The notes under the pieces are model-generated. The model did not search any database and had not been told where the DNA came from. It was given only the letters and a program-made list of their open reading frames with translations. From contig JAUYMS010000048.1 of NCBI GenBank assembly GCA_030698625.1, positions 21,879 through 85,878 of the forward strand: a stretch of 64,000 bases of DNA, written 5' to 3'. Shown piece by piece: positions 13,851-48,119 of the stretch. Both the position numbers and the translations under genes were made by a program. The stretch's first letter is position 1; every line of letters begins with the position of its first letter. The stretch is from Candidatus Omnitrophota bacterium. GTDB lineage: Bacteria > Omnitrophota > Omnitrophia > Omnitrophales > Aquincolibacteriaceae.

Positions 13851-13904
13851 GGGGAAATCGCATAGAATGTACGCCTCCAGTCTCCAATCACGAGGTGTTA
13901 TCTC

Positions 13905-16454: not shown

Positions 16455-19400
16455 ATGAAAACAAAAAAACACGAAACCCAAAATCAGAACTTTCATCCGC
16501 TCCTGAAAACTACTGCGTGGATCATAGCGCTCGTTTTTCTCGTGGATACCGTTGCCTGGTCGGCGCCGGTGACGCCCGAGGCGAATATTCCCGCACCGAA
16601 CGTCTCAGCTTATCTTTACGATCTCCGGATTCCCGAAGCCATCGGTAAAATTGAAACGCGTTTTTTGCCGGCCGTCCCAGGGAAGGATACTCCCGTTATT
16701 ATTCACATCCAAGACGCGCACGCGCATCCGGAAGCCCAGCGAAATATCCAAGCGATCCTGGACCATCTCGGCAAGAACAACAAGATCGACAGGATTGCCG
16801 TAGAGGGTGCATCGGGAAAAATCGAGCCGGCCCTGCTTGAATTCTTCTCCGTTCCCAAAGTCAATGACGCCATGGCTGAGTACCTTACGGACATGGGGGA
16901 GTTGACCGGCACGGAACTTTATGCTCTTGAACATAAGGGGTCGGCCGCTTCGGTAAGCGGCGTCGAAAACGTCGATCTCTACCGCCGGAGTTTCTCCCTC
17001 TTTGAAGAGATCAAGTCCGAAAAAGAGAGCGTTGAAACGGCTCTGAGTTTCTACGGCCGCAAACTCGAGGAGCTGGAGATTCGGTACCTCGGAGAAGATT
17101 TGCGCCGATTCGTGGCACAGCGGAGGTTGTGGCAGGCAAAACAGGCAAGCGAGTCTCACGCCTACTTTAAGCTTATCGCCGAGTTTTCAGAGCGATACTT
17201 GGCCCTCAACTTTTCGGACCCGCGCATGCAGTTCACATGGCCGCATCTCGTGCGCATGGTCAAAACGGGCGAGATCGAAGCGGATCTCAAGCCGGAAGCT
17301 GCAGCCGGGGAGAGTTCGCAATTGGTTGTCGCTATCGCTCGGGCGTATCCCGATCGGAGTCCCATGAGAGATTTCCTTATCGGAGGGATTGAATCCCTGG
17401 GTTCCGAAGAAGGCCCTAAGGCGTGGTTGTCCCGCCAGAACGGCTTTGCCGACGTAAAAAACGTTCGCGAGTTTACGGAATTGCTCTATCGGGAATCCCT
17501 TAACAAGGATTTTAATCTCTTGAGTTATCCCCACCTGCTGAACCTTGCCGGTTTTCATATTTTGCGGGAGGAAATCGATGCCACGGCACTTTTTGCCGAG
17601 ATGGCCAAAATTGAAAAGCGTCTCGAAGAAACAGTGGTTCGCAGTGACGATGAGAAGATGATTCTGAGTCTCATCCATGATTTCGAACTCATCCAGAAGC
17701 TGCTTTCGCTTTCCATGACTCGCGACGACTACGAGGCCTATAAGACGAGAAAAGATGATCTTACGCCGCGTAGGCTGAGCGAGAGATTCCTTAAATGGAA
17801 CGTGTTACCGCAGACGTTTCCCGTACTCGAAGCAAAAGCAGTCGCGATGGCTGAAGAGTTTTATCTCCTTTCGCGTCGGCGCGACGAAACGCTCCTGGAA
17901 AACGCTTTGCGCCTTCCGGGGACCTCGCATCTCGTGCTCGTAGCCGGCGGTTTTCACAGCCAGGGTTTGCAGGCCTTAATGAAGGAGAAAGGAATTGCCC
18001 ACGCGGTCATCAGCCCGCGCATGACTCAGTTCGACAGCGATGGCCTCTATGAGAAGGTGATGCTCGGCGAGAACGCCAAGCTGGATCTGCTGCAGGCTAG
18101 AGGAACCGCGATCGTTAAGCGCCTCATGCTTCAGTTGTCGCAGGAATACAGAGCCTTGGGTCCTCTGCCGCGGGCCGAAGAGCAGGCGGTTCTGGCATTG
18201 CGCGCCATTCACAAAGGCGTCGAGGTTGCCAGAGCTCTTGGTATTTCTGAAAAGACATTGGCTGCAGAGTTAAGCCGGCAGATTACGCTCTCCAGCATTT
18301 TTAGCGGCACACGTTTTGGCGTCGAGTATGACGCGGCCCGAGACCGTGTTGTCTTCGGAGTTTGGAATGATCGGGGCCGCCTAACGCTTTTGGGTGAAGA
18401 TGCGGCCGTTACCGCACAACCTGCTGTATCCGATGCGGCTGCGTCGCCGAAACGAGTCGATGTTACGGCGTGGTATCTCGGGCCTGAGTCCACGCTTTCT
18501 GTCTCTTCGGGGTTTGTGGCAGCGGGCGAGATCTGGTCCAACCGCCGTACGTCGCGTTCCCGATCCGAACTTCGCGTGGAACTTGTCGCCCAAGAAAATC
18601 ACTGGGTCGGAAATTTCGTTAAGAACATCCTCAGAGTGGTGCGCGGGCGCGACAAAAACACGTATCAGCAGCTTATCACGGCCATTGACCGGGTTAATCG
18701 TCTCAAGCGTGAACTTCTCAATGACCGGGGTCCGGAGGGCCTTTGGGAGGTTCACAGTGAGGCCGATATCGGACCGCACCGCTACATCCTGAGAATCGAG
18801 AATATCGCGGAGCGTGTTTATAACGACCACTTGATCTATGATTTGCCCATCGCCCATCGCATCGCCTATGTGCTCGCGGTTTTTGACGCCAAGAATTTCC
18901 CCACACTGCACAAGCGAATCTACGATGTGGTTCGTGAGATCATCTACAAGCCTAACAGTGATGAGCTTGAACATAATCCCAGAGCCTATCGCAACCCGTC
19001 TTCCAAGGAAGCTGAGATTACGGCATCAGAGTACAGCCGCGTTGCCAATACGGTTTCGCTTGCCGAACATCAGGACACGATTGATCGGCACACGCTTCTC
19101 CAGTTTGCCCTCAACTGGATCGTATTCGACATTCCGCGCAGTCATCGCCTGGCCCTTAATAATGAGAGTTTTACTGCCGAGGGGCTCAAGGAACTCGACG
19201 TGCCCGGAAGCGGAAATATTCCTAAAATTGCCTTCATTACCGACTATCACGGCGCCACGCGTGTCGGGTCTCTTTTTGCCTTTCTTAGCGGAATTCGCAG
19301 CGATTACCGCAATGTGCAAAGCGTGGCAGATCTGGAAGCGAAAATTCTAAAACGATACGCACAACAGTTTCCGGGCAAGACGGCAGGCGAAATTATTGCT

Positions 19401-22400
19401 CAGATGAACATGCATGTCGTCGGAGCCGGAGACTATGTCGATCGCGGACCGTGGCCGGATCTGGGATACGAACTCAATAAGTTCTTCCGCGCTAACGGAA
19501 AACTTAAGTTCATCAACGGAAATCACGAGGTCTGGAAAGACTGGAATATTACCGGTGTGCACCTTCGAGTGCACGATGCGTTTCGTACCATCCTGGCCAG
19601 TGAAAAATTGGCAGAAAACCATATTAGCGAACACCTCAAAATCATAAGGCCGTTTGTCACCACCGTGGGGTGGGATGCTGTAAGGGATCAGGAGAAATTC
19701 ATAGAGCTGGAACGGCAATTAGCAGATCTGATGGCACGCTTCTTGGCAGAGGCAAAGAAAAACGGAGGTGTCCTGGATAATGAAACGATCGAAAGGTATG
19801 CCAATGTGGTGATTGATGCGGGAACTAACATGACGCATTCGCGTGAATATTGGTCACGGGAGTGGGGCGTTCACGGCAACTGGTTCGATACCCTGCTTGA
19901 TCGTTTGAATGCCCGCATGATCAACGAGGGCCGTGCGGCGGCCAATGACAGCATTAATGACAGCCTTCGCGATCGCTTGGCCGCGATTCTAGAGCCCGCA
20001 CCATTCGGAGAGTTGGATGCTGAGATTCGCGAGGGCCTCGAGGACGTTCGGGAACAGCTGTTGACCAATATCCGAAGCGGAGAGGGTCTCTTTACCCCGG
20101 TGGATTCTCTGATGTTTTCAGATACCGACGAAGTCCGCGCCCTTCTTCGTCGAATGAAAGAGCTCAAACGTGCCAACGAAGAAAAGCGCTTGCTGGGGCT
20201 CAGCCACGAACAAGTCAAGGTGCCGAGCCCCTTTGAGGAGACGGCAAAAGTGGCTCGGAGGTATCTGGATGAGACAAATAGGATTATCGGGTTCTTAAAT
20301 CGGGCCGTGAAAGAAGCAGAGATTCCGAGCTTTGAGGCAGAGCTGATCACGATGGAAAATATGCGCCATAACCCCGTGGTCCTCGAAACGGTGCAATGGG
20401 ATCTGGAGAATTTCAGGCAATTCTATGTTCACTCCCTCGGCATGGCGGTATCGCACGGCATCATCCCCTTTAAAGAGGGAACCACCGAGCTTAATGTCAG
20501 CTATAAGACCCGGGGCGGGCGCACCTTCGTAGGAGTTGCTGCGATCGATGCCATGCAAGTTGACATACGCCGGTTCTTTCAAAATATCGATAAGATCGAG
20601 GACACGGCTGAGTTCCGGCAGGAAATGGAAGACGCCCTCGGTCCCGCCTATGATATTTTGCAAGACTGGTACTCCGACCGACTCGGCATCCTCAAGGCGC
20701 CGGCGGTCTTACACTTTGCAGACATCGGCGGACCCACCAAATTTTACTTTTCCGACCCCACGGCTTACAGCCCCAGGAGATTTCAACCGAATGCGGGTTT
20801 TTTAATGTTTGGCCACGTCCCGATGTCAGAAATGAAAAAACGTGACCTTCCTTATCTCAACATGTCAACCCGATGGGAGTTGAGCGGATTCGTCAACGGA
20901 GATGACGGTATGTCCGAGGGGTATGACGGCCGCGGCTCGGTCGTTTTGATTTTCGACCGCGACGAGAATGGAGTGCTCGAGGGTTTCAGGCGATATGGTT
21001 TCAAGCGAACCTCTTTCTACATTATCAATAAGCTCGTGCCGCCGGAAGAGAAACTCCTCGCGGCGGCTGTGGCGGCCCTCAAAATAGCAAACGGAGAGAC
21101 CGAGGCGCCGGCCGATCAGGTTCGCGCCCGTGAACTGCAAGCGGAGATTGAAGAAAGGACGGAACGCATACGGGAATGGAAGGAAAGGGCCGAGCGTTTG
21201 GACCGAGACGGAGAAGAGATCGAAGATATTACGCTTTATAAGATTCCTCAAAAAACGGCGGACAGAATTCGCCCTTTCTTAAGCGGCGAGGGCCTGCTCA
21301 TGCATATGGTGGAGCAGAAACTGGAAGAGACCCGGAGAATTTATGGAGAGCTCTTAGAAACCGCTACTCAGTTCGGACGTGTTTGGAAGAAAGCCCATTA
21401 TAGGAAGAAGCTCAAAGCAACAAGCCGACAGCTTGCGAACTTTCGTATCACGACCGTCAAGAAGCTCCTCGATCGCGCCTCCAAGGCCTCCGGCCGGCTG
21501 CATTCGCAGGAAGTGCGGAGGCGCATCGACAAAGCGCTGTGGTACGCAAGGACTTGGCGCTATGCTCAATCCGAGAAGGCCGTTACCGCAGTTCTCAATA
21601 TCGTTCAGGGCCCGGAATTTGAATTGGGACCCAGCTCACAGCTTTTTGAGGATCTTGAGCGCGCGTATCTTATCCTCAGCAGGCATACCATGTCAGAGCC
21701 GGTTCTACTCCAACGCTCCGAGCTGCGGTCTGACCCTGCTGTTACAAGCACTGGTGAATCTGATGCTGAAGCTTTCAATGTCTATACCCCCGACAAAATT
21801 GTGCGCGGTATGGAGGAGGAGATCGGTGAGAAGCCGGTGCTCCTTGCCACCTTCTCAAAATACTTGAGGGCCATTGTGTCCCAGAGGACGGAAGGGGGCC
21901 GTACTGTGGCGATGCCTCCATTTTTCGTGATACCCGCCCATCTTTCCGAACGCATGCTGAGCAGCGGTCAGCCCTTCGACGAAATCACCAGAAGAAAGTT
22001 ATTGGAGAATCTCTTCGAGTTTAGCGAAAGAGGAACAGAAGCATTCGGTAAACCCGAATCACCGCTATTTCTTTCGATACGTGCAGCTGCACCGCGAATC
22101 GTGCCCGGCCAGTTTATTACTATCCTGAATGTCGGCATTAATGACGACACCTTTCCGGGTCTGGTTCAGCGCTTGGGAAGCCTTGAATTAGCCCAGAGCC
22201 GTTACTCGAAACTGATTCGCGACATTCTAATCGAAATCTATAATTATGAACGTGACGACATTAAGGAAAGTATGGATGAACTCCCGATCGAAAATTATGC
22301 GACAAAGGAGGAGTGGCGTTTAGCCGCACTGCGGAAGGCCTATCGAGATTTGCGCCAGGAAGAATTTCCGCAGGACGTTTACGAACAAGTGCGAATTATT

Positions 22401-25400
22401 ATGGATGGTATTTACAACCGCACACGATACACGTCAGCCGCTGCCGGAGCGCAGTTCCGAGGCGGTATTATGTTGCAACGCATGGTTTTCGGTATCGGAG
22501 AGAATTCTTACTCGGGCGAAATCGCCAGTCGGACATCAGAAGGGGACCGAATCATCCGGGGTAATATGGAGGCAGGCGTCCAAGGGGATGAAACAACGGG
22601 TGTCGTTCGGGTCGGTCAGGAATTCTTTCAGAGGTACCCGGAATTTACGAAAGCTATCGACGGTATTTTGACGGACGGTGAAAATTTTCTGCGCACCGCT
22701 GTTCAAATGGAGATTACCATCGAGAATAGCAAGGTCTATTTATTACAGCTGAAAGCGGCGGAGCGAACCAGTGATGCCGCGGCCGCCGTCATCATGGATT
22801 TGCTGGATCGAGGCGTCATTAATAGTGAGACGGCCTATGATATGGCTCAGAATGTCGACACGGATGCGCTGCGATTTGAAGAGGCGCTCGCGGGGACCGA
22901 TGCCCTGGTGAAGCTTGGCGGGGGTATTCACGTCTCACCGGGTGTTGCCGTTGGGCATCCGGTCATGACGAACGTAGGCGTGAATGAGAGCCGCCAGGGA
23001 GGAGTCCCCTACATCTTGGTAAAGCCCGAGATTCGTGCCCATGATCAGGAAGCCATTCAGGGTGCGAATGGCGATAAGGGTGCCGCGGCTATTGTGGCCC
23101 TCAATCAGATCGGAAATCATGCCGAGACCTTGGCGCTTATAGCGAAGATCCCCGCCGTGTTATCCGTACCCTTCGAGGAGATCGATTTACCACAGGGTAC
23201 ATTTTCGCTGCGTGGATCTGACGGTCAAGTGCATAGACTTCAGGAAACCAACCCGAATGACTTTATCTCGATTGATTCAGACGGCGCCATCTATTTAGGT
23301 AAGGCTGAAATTGTAAAGAGCCGCCGCAGCCTAAGTAAGCGTTCCGGTGATTTCCTTGCATGGAAAATGAAACTTGAGGGCAAGACGCCTGCCTTTGCCG
23401 TCAAAAGAGTGCCTTTCGGCTATGAAAGCTGGAGCACACCCTTCATCGAAGATGTGGTCAGTGAAAATGATTACTACCGCACGGTTCGTGACGGAGTGCG
23501 AGGCGATAAGAAGGTCTTTTTAATCGAACTTATTGATGTGGTCGAAGCCGAAGCAAAGCCGGATAAACAGAAAACAGAAAAGAAGGAACCTGAATATCGC
23601 ACTATTCCTGATTCGGTTATTATCGCGGCCGCTCAAGACGTGTTGGCTCGTGCCGACAGCATCGAGCAGTTCACTTTCTGGCTTTGGCGGCACTACGGTA
23701 AAATGGATCTTAATGCCTATCAGTTCGAAGAAAAAACGGAGAAGGGAAAAGAGATATTCTACGTGCCCTCTCACATTAAATACACAAACGAATCCGCCGC
23801 TCAAATTGCCTACATGCTGCGCGTCCTCAAGGGAAATCCTGAAAGGCTCGCGCAATCCATGTTTCATATGGTTGAGCGCCACAAGCCATGGAGCTATACC
23901 TTTAGGCGGGGGATCATTCCGCGCCTGTCGAGAGAGGATGCGTCCAAGTTCCTGGCTCTGGCGATGAACGAAGCTGTGAAACACGGGCAGAACCACATTG
24001 ATTTTATGATGCCCAGGCTCTTCGCGGAGCTTATCGAGAGTAACACCGAATTTGCGCTTGCCGTAATGCAAAAGGAATTTGGTCCCTTACAGCGCGGTTG
24101 GATGATGAATGGACTTTACGAGTTGTATGAACATCGTCGACTGCGGGAACGGACTATGGACTTTGATCTCCCTGCGGCGGAAAAATTAAAAGCGTTTCTG
24201 CTCGATAGTGTCGTGGATGCGGGAATCGAGTATCAGGTGGCGGAGAGGCATGAACACGGACCTCACGCCAGACGAGAAGTGACATGGACACATGACCCAC
24301 GCCTGCAGGACGAGATCGTTGCGTGGATTCGTACCCGAGAGAGGTCGGAATTGCGCGAGGCAGGGACCGCGATGCGGTCCGAGCTGCGCACCGGACCCGA
24401 TTCCGAGTATGTATCGAATGTCGTGTCGATATCGACAGCTGAGAATCTGTTGGATATCACGCCGGGCAGCATCAGTCAGCGATTTCCGGAATCAGACTAT
24501 GAGGCCCAAATCGATTGGAACCCCGGACTCATTCAATCAGACCGTGGTCTATCGCGGCTCACGATCATTCCGAAGACTGAAGGCAAAGCCAACCTTACCT
24601 ACGTCGTGAAGAGGGCCAACCCCATCAGGCGGGAGCTGGCGGCGCATTTCCAAGGTGAGGGCGATGTAGCCCAAGTTGCGTCTGATAGCGGGTTCGGCCC
24701 CGCCCTATTGCATCAAGAAGGCAACGTCATCATCGAAGAAAAATATCCGCCGGGGCATCACATCGCAGCTCGCGGTTTACTTCTTTCGCCCGTCGAATCA
24801 GCCGCCTTTGGCAGAAAGCTCGCCGGCGCACTTCACAGTATGATCACTCGGGGTCAGCTCGTTTACTACGGCGAAACACCTCAAACTCACATCATGATTC
24901 TGCCCACGAACAAAGACGGCCCCCGTATCCGCTTTTTGGACTGGAGCCATTCGCTTCCATTGCAGAATGACGCCGACCACAAAAATAAATTAGAGGCATT
25001 AAAACAATATGCCTACGTTATCAAAACCTTCTTGGCAAAACCGAGTAATAACATTTATGCATGGCGTAGTTTTGAAGCGACTTTCTTGAGTTTGGCGGAT
25101 ACGCTTGACATCGACTATTACGATGACCTTATCCACCAGGTTCGCAGCTACTATGCAAACAAGGAGACGAATCCGGATAAGGCATCTCGGGAATTATGGG
25201 GTGACTTTTTTTCGTATGCTGACGCGGCTCCGGACCTGGGCAGCGTTCGGACGACTATTGACCAGTCTGTGCCTGCAGAACGAGCTCCCGGAAAATTCGT
25301 TCAGAACCTACTGACATCGGTCAACATTGATTCGCAAGCCTTGCGCTCCGTCAAACTGATCTTGGAGCATGAGGAATATCTTGACGCGGAAATTGCGGAA

Positions 25401-37400: not shown

Positions 37401-40400
37401 AGGGGTGTTGCCAATGTCGCCCTTTATGCGGACTTCGGTTTCTTGGCTGAAGTGGCAGTAACCGTCAATCGCGAAGGGGCCGCCCTTGAAAAGGGCAGTG
37501 TCGTGATCGAGAGTATGTACACGCTGGAGCGTACGGACAAAGACCCGCCGGCAGGTAAGGCACCGTTTACGGTTGAGGAGACGACAACAAAGGGTCTGCA
37601 TGTTCGCTGGGAGGCGGCCGGTTTCTTTGACATGAAGGCAGCAAAAAAGCCTCCGCTCGATCTCCATCCCGATCTTTTAGCGAATTCCCGTTTGGGTAAG
37701 ACCTACAATGACTACCGAGTACTCGGCATAACGGGCGTAGATAAAAACGAATGGGCCCTTTCCGATGTGAAACAATTGAAGATCACCCTGAGCGGCGACA
37801 AGATTCCACAAGGGTTTTATCTTGTGGTTGCCAATACAGACCAGCCGGACGGGGTCGAATATAAGGGCCTTATCCGCCTCGCGATGCCCCAATCGATCGT
37901 GGGACAGAAGCTGGCCAAACCGACGACGCTTACCGTCGATTTTACCGCAAAGGGCCCGAAGCTCTTCCGGGACATTACGCCCGCGCGGGCGAATGCGCCG
38001 ATCGAAGCGCGCACGGTTGAGAACTTCGGTAAAGTGGGATGGGTGGCACTTCTTTTTAAGCCGGGGGACTTCGCCAAAGACCTGAAGCCCGAGGAGCACG
38101 TCGCCGACTTCAATGTTCACAGCATCGAAGTCGTGCGTTCGGAGCTGCGTAATTTAGAGAGGTTAAAGACAGAGGCAAAGGCCCTGCTCGAGCGCGCCAA
38201 GCCCTTCTACAACGAAAAGCTTGACGCAGCTATTGCCGAAATAGAGGCTGAGAATTTTACGCGTGCGAGCGACATTGTTGTTGAGGTCATTGGAATTGCA
38301 ATCGATAGGCATAACATGAAGCCCACGAGTGCCTTTGTGACGAGTCTGTGGAAGGTCCACTCCACACTCGAGCAAGCGGCGGATCTCAAGCGTTCGGAAC
38401 TACGGGTTGAATTAGCGGCGGATGAGGTGGCGACGGCCAACGGGTTGATCCGCCATCTTTCACCCAAGACGCCTCAGGCGGAGATTCCTAAGGATCACGT
38501 GCTTGTTGTGCTCGGTAATCCGCATGCGGATTATCCGGACTATGTGGCTGAGTTAGCGGAATATCTCGGCCCCACTAAGATTGTGATTGTCGGTAAAGGT
38601 GTCCGTGACGGCGAGGTCCCGGAGTGGAGAAGGATTCGCGACCGCATCGTAGACCTCAAGCCGGCGCTCGCCTCTAAGATCCTCGTGGATGAAAACGACG
38701 CCTCGATGCATACGGGTATGAATGTCACAACCGTTGCGAAGATCCTAAAAGACAACGGCATTACGAATCCTAATCTTGTGCTAACCCAAATTCCGACCGG
38801 TGTCCTGCTCTCGCGGCGTATCTTTGAAAAGCAGTGGGCCGAAAATGCGGCCCGAGCGGGCCTGAACCTGACCCCGAACTTTTTGACCTATGCGGTGGAC
38901 CGGAATTTCCGTCTCGCCGCTAACAAACCGTTAAGCAAACGTGCAGTATTCGCGGTGGAACATGCCCTGGGCCAAGTCGAACGTCTGCGCGACTGGCCGG
39001 CAAATGAAAACCCGCCTCTTGATGCGGTTGAAGGTGATGTCACGCCTGAAATTCTCAGTGCTTACGGCAGTCTGCAACGTGCACTCAAGCGCTCGGAGCT
39101 GCGTGATCTGGAACCCACGCGCGTTCTCGTCGCCGATGAACCGCAGGGCGGCGACATTGAGCCGCTGCGTGAAGTCGTGAATTTTTTTGCGGGAGACGCG
39201 GTTCTCATCGAAGGTGAAATCGAGGGCACCAGCAAGGTAGGTATCGGTGCTGATCACGATAAACTCAGAAAAGTTATTGAACAAGATAAGCCGGACGTCA
39301 TCCTGATTCGCTCCGGCGTTAAGAAAATCTTCAAGGACCCGGATTTCTTAGAATTCGCCGCGGCTAATGGCGTGCGCGCTATCATCCGCATGGGTGCGGG
39401 TATCGATAACGTTGATGATGTGATGGCCGCGGAACTCGGCATCGCTGTGATTCGTACGCATGGCAATGCAAACTCCGTGGCAAACGGGTTTTTGCGTCAG
39501 TTGCTTGCCGGTCTTGAGGCTGAAGACGGGCGGCTTGGCGAAAGCAGTGGGCCGGATCTGAGCGCCTCAGACCTCGGAGACATTTTTGACATTGATATTG
39601 ATGAGCTCGTCGCGGCAGAGGCCGAGGCCTCGAAGAATGCCGCCCGCGGTAAGACGCATCCGGATCAGGCAGGAAAAGTCTTCCACTCCATCTCCGCTGT
39701 GCGGGCCCGCGAACTACTTCAGAAGTTGGAGGGCCGTACCATCGGCCTCATGGGATTTCGTGCCGTGGCCTGGGCCGTGGCCGAAAAACTTAACGAAATC
39801 CGTACTCGCTTGAATATTGATTTTAAGATTGTCGCAACCTCTCCGACCCTCGATGGCAAGAATAAGAAAAAGGCGGCCGAGACCGCGGTCTTGCGTGAGG
39901 TCGCCGCTAAGTTTGGGGTGGAATATCCGGGCGAGGACGCGGTTTTGGCCGAATCCGATATCCTCTCGCTTCATATGTCCGCGGGTGACGAGCCTTATTT
40001 CACTAAGGAAATCCTCGAGAAAACAAAGGCCACGATTTGGATCAACACGGCAAGACAGGCGCTCATTGATGAAGACGATCCCGCATCGCTTAAGGCATTG
40101 AACAAGGCTTTCTGGGACGAATTTGTGGCGCGAGGGAACTTTTATTTCTCAGATGTGGATGCTCACGCGGCCTTTGAAGCTTTGCTGGCCGAGCATACCG
40201 GTCATCTTTTCCGCTCGCCGCATATCCTCGCCAGCACGGTGAACGCAGGTGAAGGGGTTAAGGCGCTGACGCTGCCCACGCTGAAAACCACGATCGAGCT
40301 GATGCGCGGCCTTGAGCAATCGACGCCTGACTTTGTCCTGGAGAACCTGAACGGTATATCTCTCGCTCCCAAAACCCCCGAGGTGCGCGGTCCTTTTGAT

Positions 40401-43400
40401 CCCGTCCTCGTGCAGAGCGACGGACAGACGACTTTTAGTTGGTCCCACTCGTTCCGAACCCTTGAGGCCTCGGCGATTCTCAATACGATTAACGGGTTAC
40501 CTGAGAAAAGCACGAAGAACGCTCAAGCCATGTCGCAGAAAGAAATGACGACGGTGGTTGAGTTCGACAGCGAACAACATCGCGGCTGGATTATTGATAT
40601 GAAGGTGGTCCGGGATTTCATTGCCGAACATGACCCGATGATTCGCCTCAGCCGCTGGCTCTATCAGATTACGCCGGAAGAAATTATTGTCTACGACTTG
40701 AGCGAGACGGAAATCACCACAAGTGAAGATAAAAATCTCCGCCGCTTTCTTGAAACATTACTTCACGAAATCCTCACGGCGTCGGCGATGCAGATGGCCG
40801 GAGAGAAGTCTGCGCTGACTTATGAGCTCGTACTCAATGCGATTAATAGAGAGCGAAGCGAAGATACGCGTTTCAGCCCTGATACCATTGAGTCCCTGAT
40901 GCGGGGTGAAATGATCTACAGCATTGACCGCAAGACGAGACGGATTGAACCTTCCGCCGGAACCGTTGAGTTAGGCCATCTTCCCGCTGTGTTGGCGATC
41001 CCCACGATGCAGGGTATTTATCTCAAGACGGCCTTTAGCCTGATCCACTCGCTTCACGAACTCGGTATTGACGGCGATAAAGACGACCCGGTCCTGGCGC
41101 TGCCCGATCCGCCGGCGGGACCGCTGCATCCGACGAAGCCGCATTTGGCCGCGGATGATGTCGTCATAAAAGATACGAGGAATCTTACGGCACGTTCCGA
41201 GCTTCGGGCGGCGGGTCTTGAGCGGCAACGCGAAAACAAGAGGCTGGCTACGGCCAAGCTGCTCTATCGTGATGTCTTGAAAGCCAATATCGCGCTCATG
41301 CGTGCCACCTCTGCGAAGTCGAAGGCTGCCGCCGAAAGCGAAGATGATGCCGAGGCAGCCTACCAACAGGTCGCCGCCGATCTCGCCGGTTTGCAAAAGG
41401 ACATTCTCAAGAGATGGGTGACCGCTAAGGACAAAACAGACAAGCCGTGGAAGCAAGAAGCCAAAGACAAGATCAAGCGTGCCCTTGAACTTATCGAAGG
41501 TTCCGGGGAAACGAAAAAGAATCCTATTGCCGCCAATGCCGCTTTGACTGCGGCGGTGACTCGTTTTCACAAAGAGTATGTCAACTTGCTAGCAGCGAAG
41601 TATAACCGGGTGCGGGATTATCAGATAAGCCACAAAGGCCGGTTTTCGTATGATCCGCGGAACCGGCAGTATGTGTTAATTCAGGGGGCCTATAAGATGC
41701 AGCAGGTAGTTGAAGGGCGCGAAGTCTCCATCATTTCTTTTGACGAAAGACGCTTTGATCTGTTGTGGGATGCCTTGGGCTCTCAATATCACACGATCGA
41801 CAGCGAACTAAACAACAATCGTGATACCGGGACGGCCATTGAAACGCTCGGTGAACTTGAGCAAACCCTTACGAGACTTAAACAGGATGAGAGGGATGCC
41901 TCGGCGGCCGCGGATGTTTCACGTCAGCTTACCGGGTTGGAAGAGGCGCTGAATTCGCAGTGGATTGTCGAGAAGGAACTCGCCCAGCTCGGCAGTGAAG
42001 CGGCCGCCTTACAGGTTGATCTCGGCGATTTCGGGCCGGCGCATACGACGGCGACTCAGACGAAGTCCTTGCTTGTGACCCGTCTTGGAGCCGTGAAAGC
42101 GATTATTGATAAAGTTGAAGACGGGCGCCTGCAGGAGATGCGCGATATGCATAAGGGGCGTAACCGAAACTATGACCGCAAGATTGAGAGTATGCAGCAG
42201 ACCCTGAAAAACGCTGTCTGGAGTGACGAGGAGCGTAAGATGGTTGTTGCCGCAGGCAGCCGCGCTTCCGCTTATGTGGCATTGAGTAATCCCGCAGCGG
42301 TGATCATCGACCAATTGAAGGACCGTTCCGAACCTGATCTCGAAGGCCTGAGCGGTCTCCTGCAGGGCGCGAAGCGGTCGCTCAGTGAGATGGAGAAAGC
42401 CTATAGGAGAAGTGATGCTCAGGGAGTTGCTCAGCAAAAGGCGAATGCCGTCAGGTATCTTAAGTTAGCGCGCGATATCGTTGAAGAGTCGGATCGCAAT
42501 GGGCGGTTTATGGTGGATTATCGCACCCGCTTGAAAAAGGAAAGTCTGGCGGGGAAAAGTGAAGAGCAGTTGCGTCAGGCTGCCTTCAACTACGCCCTTG
42601 ACGAATTTAGTGCCCGTGAAGGAATCGGGAAGCAATCCAAACAATTTCCTGCTTGGTGGTATCTTTTTTACCGGAACGCCTTTGTTTCCCGGCGGCCGGA
42701 GGAAAAAGAGGCACGCGAACGCGGTGACGTGAACCCCCGGTTTCAGGCACTGACGACTTTGAAACAGATCCTCAAAGCCGACACCGTGGAAAACACCCTC
42801 AAACTTAGGGCAGTTAAGAAGGATAGCCCGCTGCATACCTTTTTCACACAGGGGAGTATCAGCCCAAAGAAGAGCGTGATGAATCTGGAGGCTGAACAGA
42901 AAACAAAGTTTCTCGAAGCCCTGGCAGAGCAGCATGGAATTCAAAGGGCCGATATTCCGAATGTCCCCGCGGCGTACCGCCCGCGCACCCGCTCCGAGCT
43001 TCGGGAAACCGTGTTGGCGGCCACCGCCTCTATTCAAAGTCTGGATGCGCTGGATCGCTTGCTCGTCCTTGTGGACGGATTCGGAGAATTCTCCGAAGTC
43101 ATTTCCGAAGCGGCCACAGGTACTGAGAAAGAATTAATACAGGCCTTTCGTGCAAACAACCTGGCTGAGGTCAAAGATTCTATAAGTGCCGTGAGCGGTT
43201 GGAAAATCGGTACCCGCAATTCCTGGTTGGGTGTGAGACGTGCTATTCGCAACAGACTTCGCAAACTGATTGAACCCAGGATTGAAAGAACCATCGATAT
43301 CATTAACCAAATTGAGGATGAAGCGGCCTATTACCTTGCAGGGCAGATCTTAATCGGTGCGACTGAATTTGGCGAGTATCCGGAGCTTGAAGGCCTGCGG

Positions 43401-46400
43401 GATTATGATGCTCTTATGGCATTGGAAATGGTTCATCCGGAGATGAAACTTTGGATTTTGGATGAGGCAGTGAAGGTATCGAATGCGCTACAAATAAAGG
43501 CCTTCGAGTTCGAACATAACCACATGATGGCGCGATTCGACGAAACGGAACGGGTGATGCAATCACTTCAAAAAATAAAGGATCGCAAGGCAATGGAACT
43601 GGCGCTTTGGATTGTGATCGGGAAAGTTCCCGAACCTTTGGGCGAGGCCTACGGCAAAGGATTAGGTGTTTTAGAAGAGGCGCTTGGGGTCGAAGGATTG
43701 GACGGGGTCAGAATCCTGTTGCGGCGGCAGAATCGAAACTTCATTCGAAGCGTGATGCAGCTGGCGCTCACTCAAATTTCACAGCGCGAAGAAGCGGCAG
43801 CTTACCGGGCTCAGGTAGAGGCGCTGCCGGATAGCGATCCGATGAAAGCCCTGCTGTTGGAGGCATTTGACGCGCTCGATGCAAATCTGCAAAGATTCCT
43901 AAAGCAGTTGGACCGCTCCGAACTGCGTGCTGACGAAGCCGATAAGGTCGTCATCCACCCGGTGATTCGGGAGCATATTGCAGCGTGGCTGATCGAGTAC
44001 CTTAAGCCCGAGCGGCTGCCGCCGGGACGGGAGTTCAGCGCGGACACGCTGGATGCCGTGATTCTCGAGCCCGACAAGGCACCGGATATCCTCAATGCTG
44101 CAGGAGCACAAATCAAAAAGAAGCATAAAGCTGGTCTGGTTAGCGAGCTCAAGGTGCAGCTGCGTGTGGCCTCGGCCTTTGCTTCTGCCAAAGAAGCGGG
44201 CGTTGTGGACCAGACGACTGCGGAAGATACCCACAGGATGACCGTCATTGCAAAATTTGCTGATCGCACGGAGGCTTCCAGAAAGGACTTTGCGGCGAAA
44301 CTTGCCGTGAGTGTGAAGCAGCAAGTCGAGCAATTGTCCGACAGCCAACTGCTCGCAATTTCGATGGACCTGGAATTACTTCGCGAGCAGGCAGTGCGGG
44401 CAGCCGCGGCCGCTCCCCAGAAACTCCGGTTTCAACCGCCGTTCTTTGTGGCCATGGGCTTTGGCCCCTCAGCTCTCAGGCAGGCCTTTCGCACAAGCCT
44501 GATTCAGCGCGGCGTGAGTACGACCGGCGCAGACGATTTCTTGAATACCCTTGAAGACAAAAAGCATGTGACGCCGGTCTGGGACGCGGCTGATGTTATC
44601 GGCAAGGCGGCTGCACAGGTTACGCTTCCGGGCGGCATTACGGTAAACATTCTGGACGAAAAAGACATTCATCTCATCAACTCTCTGCTAGCGGCCGGCG
44701 GGCGGACCGAACAGCTTCGCGTCTGGCTCGTCAACGGCCGTCTCATTATGGCGCTCTTCGGTGAAGTGACGCATGAAACGCTTGCGCTTGATGAGCTGGA
44801 TGACGACACCCAACTTGGCGTCGGCATTCGCACCTATACGTCATTCACAGCGGCGACGCCGCTCGCCCTGATCGGCGAGGCCACCCGCGATCACGGAACG
44901 CTCGAGATCTACCGGCCGGTGATTCAGTTGAAGGCTTCCGAGCAGAGCCAAACAGTCAAGACCACGCTAGCCAAGGAAAATCCTGAGTTTTTCAAAGCGT
45001 GGACGAATGCCGAACGTGAGAAGTGGTCCGAACAACTCAGTGACCTCGACCGCTTTGCGGCAGACATGGAGGCCATGACCCGTTTCCGCGGTGTTAGCGA
45101 CCTTATCTCCATGATATTCAGCCAGTCGGCAAGCCAGCAGTTCGGTGACCTTGCCGAGATTTTTCAGAAACTGGCGTCGGTTGAAAGCACGGCACAGCAG
45201 CTCCCGTTTATCCCCGACACCCTCTTCGATTTCATCGGGAGATTCGACCCGTTTCAGGGTTTATATGCCAAGGTACACGAACTCGCACTTGCAAGTTCCG
45301 AAGACGCCTATCGCCTGCTGCTTCTGCAGTGGGCCCAGACGAAAAACGAAACCCGGATTACCGTACCCGTGGCCAGGCTGCGGGCAGAGCTGGAACTTGA
45401 GCTTCTCGAAGGGCTCTTGAGTGGCAAGCCGGAGGATCTCGCAGCGAATCTCGAAAAACTTCTGACGACGGATCCTCAGCAGCAACTGTTGAATCTTTTT
45501 GGGGAGCTCAATGAAGCGGCCAAACAGCACAAGGAGGCTCCCGAAGGTTTCCTTGCCGAACTCGAACAGGCGAAAGGGATGCTGAGATCTATATTGAAGT
45601 TGGACGAAGGCCGCCTCGAGCTGCCGGCTGCCGATCGGCCGGTAGAATCTGGTTTGGACGCGCTGCGCGATGAACGCGATCGCATGGGAATGGTAATAAG
45701 GATTGCGGACATTGACGATGCGGCCTTTCCTCTCGGCGAAAAAGTACGCATTGTCTCCGATGTGACAGGCGCTTTTATTCAGGAAGCGCGTTACGATGAC
45801 TCTCTCATTAAAGAATTGATCCTAAATAATCAGGATGCCCGCTATTCGGCGGCCCAAAACGAAGAGGCGCACAGAGTCGTCTCGGACCTCATCTCAAAAA
45901 CGTACAATGAGCAGTTCCGGCCGGCGATCGCCGAGGGGCGCCTTGCGGATGCCGAAAAGGCCTGGGCGCGTTTCGTGCGTCTGACTACCGGCGGCTACAT
46001 CGTTTCGATCACGGCAGATAACCACAAATTCGATTATGTCGTTCCTACGGCAACCGAAGCAGATCTTAACGAACTCGTAAAGGGCCATACCGTAAAATCG
46101 GAATTTTTCCAAGCGCTCATAGACCACAAGGCAAACATCGGTGCGGCCGAGAATGCCCGCACTTCCATTACCTTCGTGACACGCACGGCCGAGCGCTTTA
46201 CCGTAGCCCTTATGCAGCGTGCCGATATTCAACAGGCATTACGTGAAGCCGGAATCGACGAGGTCCGCATTATCGGCACCGTGATCAAAACCGACAAGGA
46301 GGCCCTCGGAATCGACGAATACGATATCGTGCGGGCGCCGGTAGAAAAAGAGGATGTGTACGTATTCCCGAGTCTAGGCGAGACCTATTTCGTGGACGAC

Positions 46401-47366
46401 AAATCCGCGGCGAAATACGAAGGCCGCTTCGAGAAACGAATCATTAATGTAGAAGCCGTGAACCGCTCCGAGCTGCGGACCGCTACGGCTGAAGTCGCAT
46501 TGCAGACTCCGTGGGAGACTGAATTTGCCGATGCATTGCGTGCGATCGAGAACGTGTTGTGGGGCCGTTACGAGATTACGCGCGAAGTCACGGTGATTGC
46601 CGCACGCCTCATTTTGCCGATTATTCCGCAGGACGTGCTGAATGCCGGGCGCGTGCGTGAATTCCTCGAGGCCGATCTGTTCGGGCCGCAGTCGCGTGCC
46701 CTCGCGGCCGTCACCGGTATCGATACCTTCTCGGATCAGGCGCAGGCGAATCTGGCGCAAGCGGCGATCAATATCCGTCTTCTGGATCGAGTGCCCGAGA
46801 ATTCCCGCTACCTTGTCGGGATCGAAAAGATTCTTGCGGACCAACCGGGTCTTTACCTTCGTGCGATTGTGGTGGACGGGGACGAAGCGCAGGTGCGAGC
46901 CGCGGGCGATTTGAATCGTGCCTTCACATATGGCTACCCGCATTTGGCTAATCGGTTCCGGATTGATGTGGTCTCTGAAAGGAGATTGAGTGCCGCTGTC
47001 CAGGAAACGATAGAAGAGACGCATAAGAATGTCCGGGCAACCGAGGCGATTTCCACAGAGGAGCTTCTGGATCGCGCCACCCTTTCGAGTGTGCGCGAGG
47101 AGTGGCTAGAGCGTGTTCTTGTTCAGGCTAAGTGGCGGGTTTATGACAATGTCGAAGAAACGCGTTTGGGCGAGGAGCTTGTCGGGATTCAACTTGAAGC
47201 CCTCCTAGCGGCCGACCACCTTGATGCCGAATTGCTCAAACAACTTGAAGGTCGGCAAAAAGAGCGTCATATTACTCGTCAGGATCTTTATAATGCCGTG
47301 GATGAGGTTGCCGCGAATCTTTGGGAAGCCTATCTCGGCGATCGTAAGTTTTACGAAGCAGCCTAA
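16455..47366 (+). CDS. Giant 10,303-aa modular membrane-anchored mega-protein built of enzyme-like domains separated by RSELR motifs
   Basis: 30,912 nt with no stop codon in one frame. Consistent codon structure throughout, and only short spurious ORFs on the opposite strand. N-terminal signal/TM anchor. Domains are recognisable by direct motif alignment (see domain features). Confidence 0.9.
   Translation: [10303 protein letters not shown]
16506..16562 (+). other. N-terminal signal peptide / signal-anchor helix of the giant protein
   Basis: [21 protein letters not shown]: positive n-region, hydrophobic core, AWS-AP possible signal peptidase site. Confidence 0.6.
16700..18010 (+). other. 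TraB/GumN/TIKI-like domain (module 1)
   Basis: [15 protein letters not shown] resembles the TraB GTAHV block. C-terminal [13 protein letters not shown] resembles the TraB-family GxGH block. Confidence 0.35.
19200..19900 (+). other. Calcineurin-like (PPP-type) metallophosphoesterase domain (module 2)
   Basis: Ordered motifs TDYHG (GDxHG-like), GDYVDRG (GDxxDRG) and GNHE in canonical spacing. Confidence 0.6.
21850..23300 (+). other. PEP synthase / pyruvate-phosphate-dikinase-like ATP-grasp nucleotide-binding domain plus phosphohistidine (PEP-utilizers mobile) domain; no C-terminal PEP/pyruvate TIM barrel (module 3)
   Basis: [29 protein letters not shown] aligns to PPDK [52 protein letters not shown]...[11 protein letters not shown] aligns to VQAMVFGN.G.TSGTGV.FTRNP...LYMLQ.[22 protein letters not shown] aligns to TSHAAVVARGWGKCCV, so the phospho-His is retained. 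[14 protein letters not shown] aligns to GDWLSLDGSTGEV. No GLCRTEHMF-type barrel follows. Confidence 0.7.
24345..24389 (+). repeat. 45-nt direct repeat copy A (encodes [15 protein letters not shown])
   Basis: tcggaattgcgcgaggcagggaccgcgatgcggtccgagctgcgc is 43/45 identical to copy B at 26424-26468, with a 41-nt perfect core. Confidence 0.9.
24650..26220 (+). other. Two protein-kinase-like (APH/RIO/Kdo-kinase-like) motif blocks within module 4
   Basis: [32 protein letters not shown] and [32 protein letters not shown] resemble the HGDLHPGNILV...IDW catalytic-loop / DFG-like arrangement. Weak. Confidence 0.25.
26424..26468 (+). repeat. 45-nt direct repeat copy B (encodes [15 protein letters not shown])
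   Basis: tccgaattgcgcgaggcagggaccgcgatgcggtccgagctgcgt, 2079 nt downstream of copy A in the same frame. Confidence 0.9.
27300..27960 (+). other. Glu/Leu/Phe/Val dehydrogenase-like domain, NAD(P)-binding part (module 5)
   Basis: [17 protein letters not shown] aligns to GDH [32 protein letters not shown]...[23 protein letters not shown] aligns to KTFVVQGFGNVG...VGESDGSIWNPDGID. The upstream GGxKGG catalytic-Lys motif is not evident. Confidence 0.6.
29100..29760 (+). other. M50 (site-2-protease)-like transmembrane HExxH metalloprotease-like block (module 6, N-terminal part)
   Basis: Hydrophobic helix [18 protein letters not shown] directly followed by HERGH (nt 29343-29357). Downstream AAAGPAAS (cf. 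M50 AGPxxN) and a further helix ending AFLDRL (cf. LDG). 3-4 TM helices. Confidence 0.4.
29900..30800 (+). other. Enolase C-terminal TIM-barrel domain (module 6, C-terminal part); no enolase N-terminal capping domain
   Basis: Colinear match to enolase: GGVHT/[153 protein letters not shown]. All barrel catalytic and metal residues are conserved. The first ~140 aa of enolase are absent. Confidence 0.75.
31760..32700 (+). other. Glucosamine-6-phosphate deaminase (NagB)-like domain (module 7, N-terminal half)
   Basis: IQIPTGSTP (LPTGGTP), FNLDEYVGL (FNMDEYVGL), [24 protein letters not shown] ([25 protein letters not shown]), [24 protein letters not shown]. Confidence 0.8.
32920..33500 (+). other. 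LmbE/PIG-L-like deacetylase domain (module 7, C-terminal half); with the NagB part this gives a NagB-II-type architecture
   Basis: [13 protein letters not shown] (AHPDDE zinc motif) and DPHGAHGLG (HxxH) about 150 aa later. Confidence 0.6.
38460..39080 (+). other. DUF218 (YdcF/SanA/ElyC)-like domain (module 12)
   Basis: [35 protein letters not shown]...[19 protein letters not shown] resembles DUF218 VLGg....R...a..l...g....iivsGG...le..StnT.eNa. Confidence 0.35.
39250..40260 (+). other. D-isomer-specific 2-hydroxyacid dehydrogenase (PGDH/D-LDH-like) domain (module 13)
   Basis: [32 protein letters not shown] (substrate-binding domain signature), [18 protein letters not shown] (NAD-binding GxGxxG-like), [14 protein letters not shown] (Arg/Glu of catalytic triad), RSPHILAST (catalytic His). 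Confidence 0.75.
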
Positions 47367-47380
47367 AAAGAAAGTACTCA

Positions 47381-48115
47381 ATGCCGCGTCGCAGCATCCT
47401 GGTCCTCGATTCTCCGGATACCCACTGGACTTCTCTTATTCAAGAATATTTTCAGGATACTTCTTCGCAGGTCGATTGCTTTGATGCAGCTGCCCCGGCG
47501 GGTCAGGCCCTGGATAAAACCGGTCACGATCTAGCCTTTATAAACCCCAAACTTCTCAATCTTGCCCTGACCCAAAAACTCCTTTCTGTACGACAGACCC
47601 GGCCGGATTTCCGTATCTTTGGTTTGGGTAAAGCCGCTCAAGCAAATAAAATTCCTTACAGCGCTCTCTTTGAAGAGGAGATCTCCTTGTTTGACTTTAG
47701 CAAGAAGGTGGTCGAGGCTGTGCCGCTTCCCGAGGCGATTCAGGTCGTGGTGGTTGACGATGAGGAGGCTATAGCCGCCATGGTTTGTGATTACTTGAAA
47801 GGGCGATCGAATCCGGTTTTTCAGGTGCGTTACGCAAAGAACGGTGAAGAGGGGATGCGGCACTTGACTGAAAAGCAGCCCGATGTGCTTATACTCGACA
47901 TCAAGATGCCCGTCAAAGACGGGCGTGAGGTGTATCGCGAAATTCAGGCGAAGAAATGGAATTTCCCGGTGGTCGTTTTCTTTGATGCGGTTTCAGCTCA
48001 CGAAATGCTTGAGATTCGAAAGGCCGGTAACCCCGTAGTCCTCGAAAAGGGTTCACGCGAAAGCACCATGCCTGAGATGATGGTCCTCATTAAAAAACTC
48101 GCCTTCTTCGGGTAA
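47381..48115 (+). CDS. Response regulator with tandem receiver domains (first degenerate), no output domain
   Basis: C-terminal half VVVVDDEEAIA...DVLILDIKMPVKDG...PVVVFF is a canonical REC with an acceptor Asp. N-terminal half ILVLDSPD...HDLAFINPKL is REC-like with Asp->Asn at the acceptor position. Starts 14 nt after the giant-ORF stop. Confidence 0.75.
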   Translation: MPRRSILVLDSPDTHWTSLIQEYFQDTSSQVDCFDAAAPAGQALDKTGHDLAFINPKLLNLALTQKLLSVRQTRPDFRIFGLGKAAQANKIPYSALFEEEISLFDFSKKVVEAVPLPEAIQVVVVDDEEAIAAMVCDYLKGRSNPVFQVRYAKNGEEGMRHLTEKQPDVLILDIKMPVKDGREVYREIQAKKWNFPVVVFFDAVSAHEMLEIRKAGNPVVLEKGSRESTMPEMMVLIKKLAFFG

Positions 48116-48119
48116 CCGC

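Follow-up and report, generated by a model that had tools for sequence, protein, structure and literature searches.

A cysteine-free, modular protein of 10,303 residues from an Omnitrophota bacterium and the five-residue peptide at its module boundaries

Proteins of up to 85,804 amino acids (aa) have been described from Omnitrophota (West-Roberts et al. 2023, bioRxiv 10.1101/2023.11.21.568195), a phylum proposed to be episymbiotic or predatory by these authors and by Nielsen & Lui (2026, bioRxiv 10.64898/2026.06.07.730766). According to the former study, the N-terminal regions of the giants 'generally lack identifiable domains', missing information on cleavage points prevented the giants from being split, and whether they are cleaved or intact is an important question. 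The latter catalogued 916 proteins of at least 10,000 aa (10 kaa), with 5,761 clustered in all; 94% carry a transmembrane (TM) helix or signal peptide, and the first of three classes is that of 'multi-enzyme metabolic clusters'. Here we analyse a giant gene within a window of 64,000 nucleotides (nt), the whole stretch of DNA considered, on contig JAUYMS010000048.1 of Candidatus Omnitrophota bacterium (GCA_030698625.1). Its product belongs with high confidence to the multi-enzyme class, as it comes from the same phylum, exceeds 10,000 aa, contains many Pfam families none of which dominates, and has a signal peptide and TM helices. Size, anchor and mosaic composition are thus already known for the phylum. 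No description of a grammar of conserved head, peptide delimiter, cysteine exclusion and tail was found in the two preprints or in full-text searches; cysteine, polyproteins, TIKI-like domains and delimiter or linker motifs go unmentioned in both preprints. An earlier note, made from the sequence alone, had treated proteins of this size as rare in bacteria while allowing for giant genes in Omnitrophota. The host is indeed Omnitrophota, where a 10-kaa open reading frame (ORF) is now ordinary and its rarity no longer holds; the interest lies in its internal grammar.

The gene is almost certainly genuine and single. The ORF (16455..47366, + strand, as are all features of the gene described below) comprises 10,303 codons plus stop. 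An in-frame stop at 16449-16451, immediately 5' of the ATG at 16455, means that no earlier start is possible, and the remaining five frames contain 161-600 stops each over the same interval. At a stop probability of 0.045 per codon, derived from base composition, 10,303 open codons would arise by chance with a probability of e^-475. The main claims of the earlier note on the ORF are borne out: the 30.9-kb frame is uninterrupted, the longest ORF on the opposite strand within the gene encodes 216 aa, and the coding character is uniform and host-like. A log-odds model of codon usage, for which 19 neighbouring genes served as training set, ranks frame 0 first in 34/34 successive 900-nt sub-windows, and GC1, GC2 and GC3 are constant along the ORF. 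The window contains no N bases. Two Logan contigs (SRR13727534), the work of a different assembler on probably the same reads as the metagenome-assembled genome (MAG), are 100% identical to positions 5575-24377 and 37381-48946, the second reaching back to ~30499 by an inferred extension. In NCBI, where the contig measures 346,779 bp, a single accession separates the flanking RecR (MDP3921456.1) and response regulator (MDP3921458.1), so the giant gene appears to have been deposited as one coding sequence.

The only substantial DNA repeat in the gene is a pair of 49-nt direct repeats (24340-24388 and 26419-26467, 43 bases identical), which bracket the module M4 and inside which the first Logan contig terminates. 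Mis-handling of this repeat could alter the copy number or placement of M4 but not close the frame, which survives the loss of M4 because the two copies are exactly 693 codons apart. M4 may plausibly be prone to gain or loss in frame through this pair, which is the single spot where the copy number in the assembly might be wrong.

The delimiter peptide and cysteine exclusion

The exact pentapeptide RSELR occurs 18 times in the giant. In 500 shuffles of the sequence the mean was 0.054 occurrences and the maximum 2. The first copy (18561..18575, aa 703-707) stands at the end of the head module and the second at aa 1754 (21714..21728). Two double delimiters follow, each RSELR-EAGTAM-RSELR, with first arginines at aa 2630 and 2641 (24342..24389, aa 2630-2645) and at aa 3323 and 3334 (26421..26468, aa 3323-3338); these are encoded by the 49-nt repeat pair. 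Single copies then begin at aa 4200 (29052..29066), aa 5091 (31725..31739), aa 5777 (within 33783..33869, where a signal-peptide-like segment, VSVKE-VLVGLALVGVLATGSHGA, opens module M8), aa 6231 (35145..35159), aa 6522 (36018..36032), aa 7228 (38136..38150), aa 7313 (38391..38405), aa 7546 (39090..39104), aa 8247 (41193..41207), aa 8846 (42990..43004), aa 9154 (43914..43928) and aa 10004 (46464..46478), the last at the start of the tail. The giant is thereby divided into approximately 17 modules (M1-M17) of 85-1,051 aa and two spacers of 11 aa.

The sites coincide with the boundaries of evolutionary units. Homology blocks between the giant and related proteins were mapped by BLAST independently of the RSELR sites, and 18/33 of their endpoints lie within 15 aa of a site where 2.05 are expected (P<2e-4), with a median endpoint-to-site distance of 10 aa compared with 185. 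The block common to the related proteins P0002, P0044 and P0057 (47-53% identity), which covers the NagB and PIG-L domains and is opened by the delimiter at aa 5091, runs from 5084-5099 to 5770-5782. The block common to the related locus L012 and protein P0132 (41-45% identity), opened by the delimiter at aa 7313 and corresponding to M12, runs from 7313 to 7546-7550, and the tail block begins at 10002. An alignment of the tail from six proteins is unalignable before the motif column and continuous after it. In an AlphaFold2 (AF2) model of the tail the predicted local distance difference test (pLDDT) is ~25-35 around the motif and 80-94 in the domain that follows. None of the sites lies inside a recognised domain, and the residues flanking them are unconserved, with just a mild bias towards Ala or Ser at -1 to -3.

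Across the 18 sites the peptide is written with five Arg, four Ser and four Leu codons and with both of the codons for Glu. As synonymous codons vary while the peptide is exact, selection acts on the peptide rather than on a DNA repeat. The serine is always encoded by TCN, whereas AGY accounts for 40% of the gene's Ser codons (P=1.2e-4), which suggests either uninterrupted purifying selection on the serine or a common origin of the sites. In the literature RSELR was found solely as the unrelated catalytic motif of PL7 alginate lyases.

The same peptide marks a family. In 165 proteins that carry the head (402,276 aa), RSExR is present 343 times against 8.7 expected, a 39-fold excess, with 1-39 occurrences of scrambled controls; it is also the top de novo gapped 5-mer (81-fold), followed by RAExR (16-fold). 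Position 4 varies between V, L, A, M, T and I while R, S, E and R are fixed, and the first site lies at a median of aa 708, directly behind the head. The remaining proteins of the window contain no copy in 10,681 aa. Taken together, RSExR is very probably a functional peptide delimiter of modules.

Cysteine exclusion accompanies the delimiter. The giant has no cysteine in 10,303 aa and no TGT or TGC codon in frame, where ~98 residues would be expected (P ~1e-43) and 24 neighbouring ORFs average 0.95%. Among the 165 head-bearing proteins cysteine makes up 0.13% of residues, and family members of 7,376, 5,541 and 4,660 aa have none. In a comparison of flanks at 80 related loci, head ORFs contain 0.19% cysteine and flanking ORFs 0.80%. 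Cys-poor ORFs at these loci carry 0.69 motifs per 1,000 aa (67/140 with the motif) compared with 0.03 in Cys-normal ORFs (3/211), such that RSExR and Cys depletion co-occur with a Fisher p of 1.7e-28. The Cys-poorest other proteins of the window belong to the envelope, namely an HlyD-like protein (0/472) and an outer-membrane efflux protein (OEP; 2/606). Exclusion of cysteine is a known adaptation of exported proteins in bacteria without oxidative folding systems (PMC2823432). Combined with the signal peptide, its absence from the giant is the best available sign that the whole product may go to the envelope or beyond.

Several features of the family bear on how delimiter and head are distributed. 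Where the motif occurs in an ORF with no visible head, that ORF is long and lies next to a head ORF on the same strand. This arrangement is frequent: at L012 (12460-17150), L019, L056, L033, L059 and other loci, head ORFs are flanked on the same strand by long, Cys-free, RSExR-rich ORFs with no head in the DNA retrieved, and the ORF downstream at L012 has blocks homologous to M12 and M2 of the giant. Such headless neighbours are either tandem related genes or larger genes split by frameshifts in those MAGs. Five large proteins without RSExR (P0084, P0118, P0135, P0104 and P0050) contain the peptide [G/A/S]-S-L-G-x-E instead, with 24 copies observed against 3.6 expected. The two peptides never occur together in one protein, and heads of the SLGxE type are 48% identical to each other and 28% to heads of the RSExR type. 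SLGxE may be an alternative delimiter particular to one clade. Similar heads tend to share a delimiter type, with nearest-neighbour concordance in 91/101 cases; shuffling gave 57 on average and 77 at most. Head loci are also present in MAGs labelled as other phyla, L065, L071 and L074 as 'uncultured Planctomycetia' and L076 as 'Elusimicrobia'; the frame around the head match in L076 is open for just 49 codons. These off-phylum loci could reflect mis-binning or mis-labelling, a pseudogene or rare transfer.

Head, cargo and tail

The protein begins with a signal peptide or signal anchor (16455..16577, aa 1-41), recognised from hydropathy and charge. It reads MKTKKHETQ and then AWIIALVFLVDTVAWSAP, and the KTKKH n-region together with the hydrophobic stretch at aa 15-41 agrees with the signal or anchor helix of the earlier note. 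Homologues carry matching signal-peptide-like N-termini. The core of the head module (16602..18374, aa ~50-640) has a central parallel β-sheet with flanking helices, the α/β core of the superfamily that comprises TIKI, TraB, erythromycin esterase and ChaN, in two halves separated by a helical insert of ~300 aa. Residues D87-x-H89, E117, R476 and GGFH501 are invariant or nearly so in 20 sequences, and E117 is placed 28 residues after the histidine, as in Bcr135 and RRSP. In the superfamily the corresponding set of two histidines and two glutamates is represented by E3900, H3902, E3930 and H4030 in RRSP and by H85/E113 in Bcr135, together with a conserved arginine. The assignment is therefore based on fold and motif rather than on sequence models, as no Pfam or NCBIfam match was found within aa 1-900 at E≤0.01, including to the TraB, Erythro_esteras and Cofac_haem_bdg models. 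On this evidence the head most likely has a TIKI-superfamily fold, and it appears to keep the complete predicted catalytic constellation of this hydrolase superfamily. The head domain begins at least 10,408 protein clusters, nearly all from Omnitrophota, and is found only as the N-terminal part of long multi-module proteins. Members of the superfamily include site-specific endopeptidases (RRSP, Tiki), esterases and non-enzymes (ChaN, PMT). No publication linking Omnitrophota to the TIKI superfamily was found in a literature search.

Some 15 cargo modules, unrelated to one another, lie between head and tail. Searches of Pfam, NCBIfam and PDB sequences identify several distinct enzyme folds, and at least nine Pfam families are present, each in single copy. 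The mosaic of folds proposed in the earlier note therefore stands with the qualification that the recognised folds cover ~22% of the length; for the remainder the libraries used gave no match, and in the nine RSELR-defined modules without an assigned function no credible new domain was found with Pfam at E≤1. All of the enzyme modules score below the NCBIfam equivalog cut-offs and are therefore divergent relatives rather than housekeeping enzymes. Several nevertheless retain their catalytic residues and look like intact enzymes.

M2 (18564..21716, aa 704-1754) contains a calcineurin-like phosphoesterase at aa 924-1032 with the motifs GDYVDRG (GDxxDRG) and GNHE. The core of M3 (21906..23492, aa 1818-2346) resembles the ATP-grasp and phosphohistidine swivel domains of pyruvate, phosphate dikinase (PPDK). 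It matches PPDK residues ~35-576 of 874, keeps the swivel histidine ('IGNHAE') and scores 129 bits against TIGR01828 (cut-off 843). The phosphoenolpyruvate (PEP)/pyruvate TIM barrel is absent; M3 thus falls outside the three-part definition of the enzyme and appears to be a dikinase fragment. M4 (24378..26423, aa 2642-3323) has no assigned fold and a homologous block in P0003 (31% identity), where it stands in a different order. M5 includes (27699..29015) a Rossmann domain like that of Glu/Leu/Phe/Val dehydrogenases at aa 3749-3946 and HEAT repeats at aa 4094-4187.

M6 combines a membrane block with an enolase. The block (29181..29705, aa ~4243-4417) consists of three TM helices with an HExxH motif (HERGH, aa 4297-4301) directly after TM1 and 'AFLD' ending TM3; P0003 and two short fragments, P0166 and P0167, share both HERGH and this terminal 'LD'. 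The block resembles the core of a site-2 protease. Its best indication of identity is a sub-threshold match to Pfam Peptidase_M50 (E=0.085, 12.6 bits, cut-off 27.2). A PDB profile search gave no match and the second motif, NxxPxxxxDG, is absent apart from the 'LD'. An identity as site-2 protease is unsupported beyond this sub-threshold match, and the block is a possible, unconfirmed candidate intramembrane metalloprotease. The enolase (29910..31511) is circularly permuted, with the barrel at aa 4486-4782 preceding the N-terminal domain at aa ~4813-5019, which carries an insert of ~110 aa. In a PDB alignment (E ~1e-43), the residues that we take to be the catalytic and metal-binding set of enolases in yeast numbering all have equivalents (S39, E168, E211, D246, E295, D320, K345, H373/R374/S375 and K396). 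Given its score of 202.7 bits against TIGR01060 (cut-off 300) and its non-canonical domain order, it is best described as a permuted enolase-like module, not a canonical enolase. The enolase of P0003 shows the same permuted arrangement, and no report of a natural circularly permuted enolase was among the literature matches listed.

M7 (31788..33440) joins a NagB-like domain (aa 5112-5406) to a PIG-L/LmbE deacetylase (aa 5496-5662). It is collinear with the NagB-LmbE fusion PRK02122 (profile 170-638 of 653, 280 bits, cut-off 384) and has the NagB motifs PTGSTP, FNLDEY and GHIGFNEP, the last preceded by an insert, as well as the PIG-L motifs HPDD ('SPHPDDD') and a later His motif ('DPHGAHG'). 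M9 has a TM helix (35787..35879, aa 6445-6475) followed by a K/R-rich stretch, one of ~5 internal hydrophobic helices that a hydropathy scan finds in the giant. The core of M13 (39357..40259, aa ~7635-7935) resembles D-2-hydroxyacid and 3-phosphoglycerate dehydrogenases.

An adhesin or an internally repetitive protein was also considered and is rejected, in agreement with the earlier note's view that the product is not an Ig, cadherin or RTX (repeats-in-toxin) adhesin. A BLAST self-comparison of the giant found no internal protein repeats at E<1e-3; no GGxGxD motifs occur, and no TSP3, Ig, cadherin or β-helix adhesin domain was detected in it.

The tail module (46467..47363, aa 10005-10303) has a confidently predicted α/β core and is the extreme C-terminus in at least five other family members, P0002, P0032, P0044, P0117 and P0132. 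Most of the six tail-sharing proteins end in R-x-F-Y/H-x-x-A (the giant in DRKFYEAA at 47340-47363, P0132 in AHSA), and this conserved end could be a sorting, PDZ-type or tail-specific protease recognition signal. P0002 (2,622 aa) consists of head, NagB/PIG-L and tail, and P0003 (2,607 aa) of head, the TM-HExxH block with permuted enolase, and the M4-like block, in an order unlike that of the giant. The closest heads, at ≤46% identity, carry different cargo directly behind the head. The search for homologous giant ORFs that the earlier note had proposed thus yields relatives of 5,000-7,400 aa with the same architecture but no collinear full-length orthologue. Since the same modules are reordered and cargo differs behind close heads, the family evolves by exchange of whole modules at the delimiters, while the head is conserved throughout and some members also have a conserved tail.

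Cleaved or intact

The best overall explanation of these features, and one that we regard as evenly balanced, is that the giant is an exported, modular, polyprotein-like protein. Its product would be exported or built at the membrane, with cysteine exclusion marking the exported fate, and RSExR would be recognised as the place to cut the chain, or at least to process it in some way, one module at a time. One polyprotein gene would in this way yield a set of envelope-associated or extracellular enzymes in fixed ratio. That RSExR is a proteolytic cleavage site has, in our estimate, slightly less than an even chance of being right, and is favoured for several reasons. An exact five-residue site with free flanks at every junction, here 18 RSELR copies at block boundaries, resembles the sites of polyprotein proteases; the chain itself encodes a hydrolase whose superfamily includes site-specific endopeptidases; the modules behave as independent units in evolution; some of them, such as M8, open with a signal-peptide-like segment right after the motif (15/340 sites in the family compared with 14/835 random positions); and intact chains would put homologous modules on inconsistent sides of the membrane across the family. 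Of the parts of the chain, the head domain would be the first to consider as the enzyme acting at RSExR, although a protease role for it at this peptide is a tentative and rather doubtful proposal. Equally speculative is the wider suggestion that the head family represents previously unrecognised bacterial self-processing polyproteins, which might release a stoichiometric, Cys-free enzyme cocktail into the envelope or deliver it to the surface or interior of a host cell.

Several observations weigh against this interpretation. The case for cleavage is drawn from sequence throughout. RSExR is present in 79/165 head proteins and in 53/86 of those of at least 2,000 aa; with about half of the head proteins lacking it, the head does not strictly require the motif, and shared ancestry could explain the concordance of head and delimiter type equally well. 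The head fold by itself does not imply a protease, given the esterases and non-enzymes of its superfamily, and its first acidic residue is Asp rather than Glu. The tail has a generic α/β fold with no significant PDB match and offers no functional clue. Export is awkward for an enolase, an ATP-grasp dikinase and NAD-dependent dehydrogenases, which use cytoplasmic substrates or cofactors. Extracytoplasmic enzymes would make sense if they acted on host or prey material; alternatively, the chain might be cut first and just a subset of the modules exported, in which case the uniform exclusion of cysteine would be unexplained. By hydropathy-based topology the membrane would separate the head from some of the cargo, and P0002, which has no internal TM helix, and the giant disagree on the side of NagB/PIG-L and of the tail. 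Topology predictions for such giants are unreliable (West-Roberts et al., bioRxiv 10.1101/2023.11.21.568195). Finally, the Logan match excludes assembler artefacts in the covered parts but leaves read-level errors possible, and positions 24378-30498 lie outside the retrieved contigs and so have no second-assembler support.

The alternative to which we attach most weight, as a substantial if minority likelihood, is an uncleaved, membrane-anchored multi-enzyme scaffold of ~1.1 MDa, a covalent metabolon or attack organelle in which RSExR would serve as a hinge, as a docking site for a chaperone, secretion factor or similar partner, or as a site of post-translational modification on its serine. 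A motif in low-confidence linkers with unconserved flanks at every junction fits a short linear motif equally well, and the invariant, TCN-only serine fits a modified residue. Internal TM segments suit a single multi-pass chain, the published view is of membrane-anchored giants whose TM counts scale with length, and the motif is missing from half of the head-bearing proteins. Yet a hinge or spacer seldom requires five invariant residues, and no partner has been identified. The modules change protein and order and sometimes occur as separate adjacent ORFs, which suggests that they work independently, and the signal-peptide-like openings, the membership of the head in a superfamily with site-specific endopeptidases and the inconsistent topology of homologous modules between family members all sit poorly with an intact chain. 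A different use of an intact product, for attachment to prey or attack on its cell wall as proposed for 'Archaeovorins', with enzyme folds that mostly bind or moonlight in the manner of a surface enolase adhesin, is improbable. Signal peptide and Cys exclusion do point outside the cell, the chemistry of NagB and PIG-L (amino sugars and de-N-acetylation) is relevant to cell-wall sugars, the neighbouring genes include a glucoamylase with a CBM9 domain and a ceramidase-like hydrolase, and adhesion to prey and breakdown of its wall are the functions that West-Roberts et al. favour. Against this, full sets of catalytic residues are kept that pure binding would not need, the NagB substrate is the phosphorylated glucosamine 6-phosphate (GlcN-6-P) rather than a polymer, and no glycoside hydrolase, lectin or dockerin domain was detected in the giant, any more than the Ig, cadherin and β-helix domains discussed above.

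Two further explanations would deny the peptide a function or the protein its unity. RSELR might be a DNA-level recombination or cassette-exchange junction with no role in the protein. This would account for block boundaries between relatives that coincide with the motif and for cargo that differs even among the closest relatives, and the double sites, with their 43 identical nt, could mediate insertion or deletion of M4. At the other sites the varied synonymous codons leave too little identical DNA for homologous recombination, and across the family it is position 4 that varies while R, S, E and R are fixed; a DNA repeat or recombination site is therefore rejected as the main cause of RSELR, since the codons vary and only the double sites share DNA, and we judge this reading very unlikely. 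An assembly or annotation artefact, in which ordinary adjacent genes, or paralogous fragments of separate loci, were fused in frame by mis-assembly or by sequencing errors that erased stop codons, seems extremely unlikely. The source is a short-read metagenome, 24378-30498 is uncovered, one contig breaks at the internal repeat, and M4, bracketed by that repeat, could be misplaced or mis-counted. The frame, however, has zero stops in 10,303 codons where the other frames have 161-600, and its codon-usage signal is uniform. At the junctions there is neither a start codon nor an intergenic signature, but in every case the in-frame delimiter peptide. The two assemblies are 100% identical over ~25 kb of the gene if the inferred extension is included; homologues from other samples run collinearly across several junctions, P0003 from the head into M6 and P0002, P0044 and P0057 across both motifs that flank M7. 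Relatives of 5,000-7,400 aa share the architecture, and removal of M4 leaves the frame open.

Genomic setting and comparison with known systems

The giant gene lies in an ordinary chromosomal neighbourhood. DnaX, RecR and the response regulator are identical to NCBI entries of Candidatus Omnitrophota bacterium; the next-best DnaX homologues reach ≤66% identity, and those with a name come mostly from Omnitrophota or Omnitrophica. The named head homologues are nearly all from Omnitrophota. In a scan of species-representative genomes with a head profile built from 6 sequences, the best match to the head domain has 46% identity; the host lineage therefore has no species-level representative in that collection. 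Upstream are genes for glycosyltransferases, WbqC, an aminotransferase, DnaX and RecR. In this glycosyltransferase-rich region, ORFs of 420, 450, 253 and 545 aa at 11243-13850 and 1-2453 have no Pfam match (E≤1e-4). A response-regulator gene (47381..48115, +) starts 14 nt 3' of the giant's stop and is probably co-transcribed with it. No convincing promoter or terminator was found around the giant gene, including the gap between the two genes, and no Rfam family was found in the window. There follow genes for a PHP-domain protein, an α/β hydrolase, a ceramidase-like protein, a CHASE2 histidine kinase, the glucoamylase with CBM9 (carbohydrate-binding module family 9) and a TolC-MFP-RND efflux pump (MFP, membrane fusion protein; RND, resistance-nodulation-division). 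The ceramidase-like gene (50436-52874, - strand) encodes an 812-aa fusion of a neutral/alkaline ceramidase N-terminal domain with an acyl-CoA:6-aminopenicillanic acid (6-APA) acyltransferase of the Ntn-hydrolase type, which is unusual for a bacterium and stands near the giant gene. The pump operon (57662-64000), with a TolC-like OEP, an HlyD-family adaptor and an RND transporter, looks complete, and its RND gene extends past the window end. A link of the giant to type I secretion (T1SS) through the adjacent TolC-like and HlyD genes was considered and is rejected, as the next gene encodes an RND transporter.

The delimiter provides explicit candidate cut points, so that the question of whether giants are cleaved or intact becomes directly testable, and allows giants to be split computationally into foldable modules. 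Were cleavage true, this would be a large cellular polyprotein system, very unusual for bacteria, and the protein-length statistics and metabolic reconstructions of the phylum would read differently. Enolase-like or NagB-like modules inside giants could be counted as housekeeping enzymes. If the self-processing interpretation holds, giant genes would largely be a means to package and shuffle enzyme sets as cassettes. Even in an uncleaved chain, motif and head are practical annotation markers for the head family, whose head defines more than 10,000 protein clusters yet is absent from Pfam.

The giant is closest to class 1 of Nielsen & Lui and the 'Archaeovorins'. It is like them in phylum, in a length of at least 10 kaa, in tiled Pfam families, in a signal peptide with scattered TM helices, in PPDK_N, HEAT and sugar-metabolism domains and in its mostly unannotated sequence. 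It differs in that no SecA-DEAD, C39 or S8 domain was found in it. Compared with the TIKI/TraB-PrgY/GumN/ChaN/erythromycin-esterase superfamily, its head differs by the helical insert of ~300 residues and by Asp as the first acid, is undetected by Pfam models and is confined to the N-termini of multi-module proteins.

Multifunctional-autoprocessing RTX (MARTX) toxins are also very large exported proteins with conserved ends and variable enzymatic modules, which in their case are released by proteolysis at short sites, and one MARTX effector, RRSP, shares the TIKI fold of the giant's head. MARTX toxins, however, have glycine-rich repeats, type I secretion and a cysteine protease domain for autoprocessing. 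The giant is without such repeats and, having no cysteine, is without a cysteine protease of this kind; the TolC/HlyD genes close to it are part of an RND efflux pump, and its modules are of metabolic type rather than known toxins. The same gene order, OEP and HlyD and then RND, sets it apart from the giant RTX adhesins of type I secretion, as do the missing GGxGxD motifs and repeats.

With the viral polyproteins of picornaviruses and flaviviruses the giant shares a single ORF, a short near-invariant peptide, an in-chain hydrolase and membrane-targeting segments. The giant is instead cellular, encoded on a bacterial chromosome near dnaX and recR, and its cleavage would be a matter of inference. 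We know of no viral system that either the candidate protease family or the RSELR motif matches. A further parallel is the VENN motif before CdiA-CT toxins, a short peptide at the boundary of exchanged cassettes in large exported proteins. VENN occurs once per protein, before one C-terminal toxin, whereas the delimiter of the giant occurs up to 18 times and partitions the whole chain.

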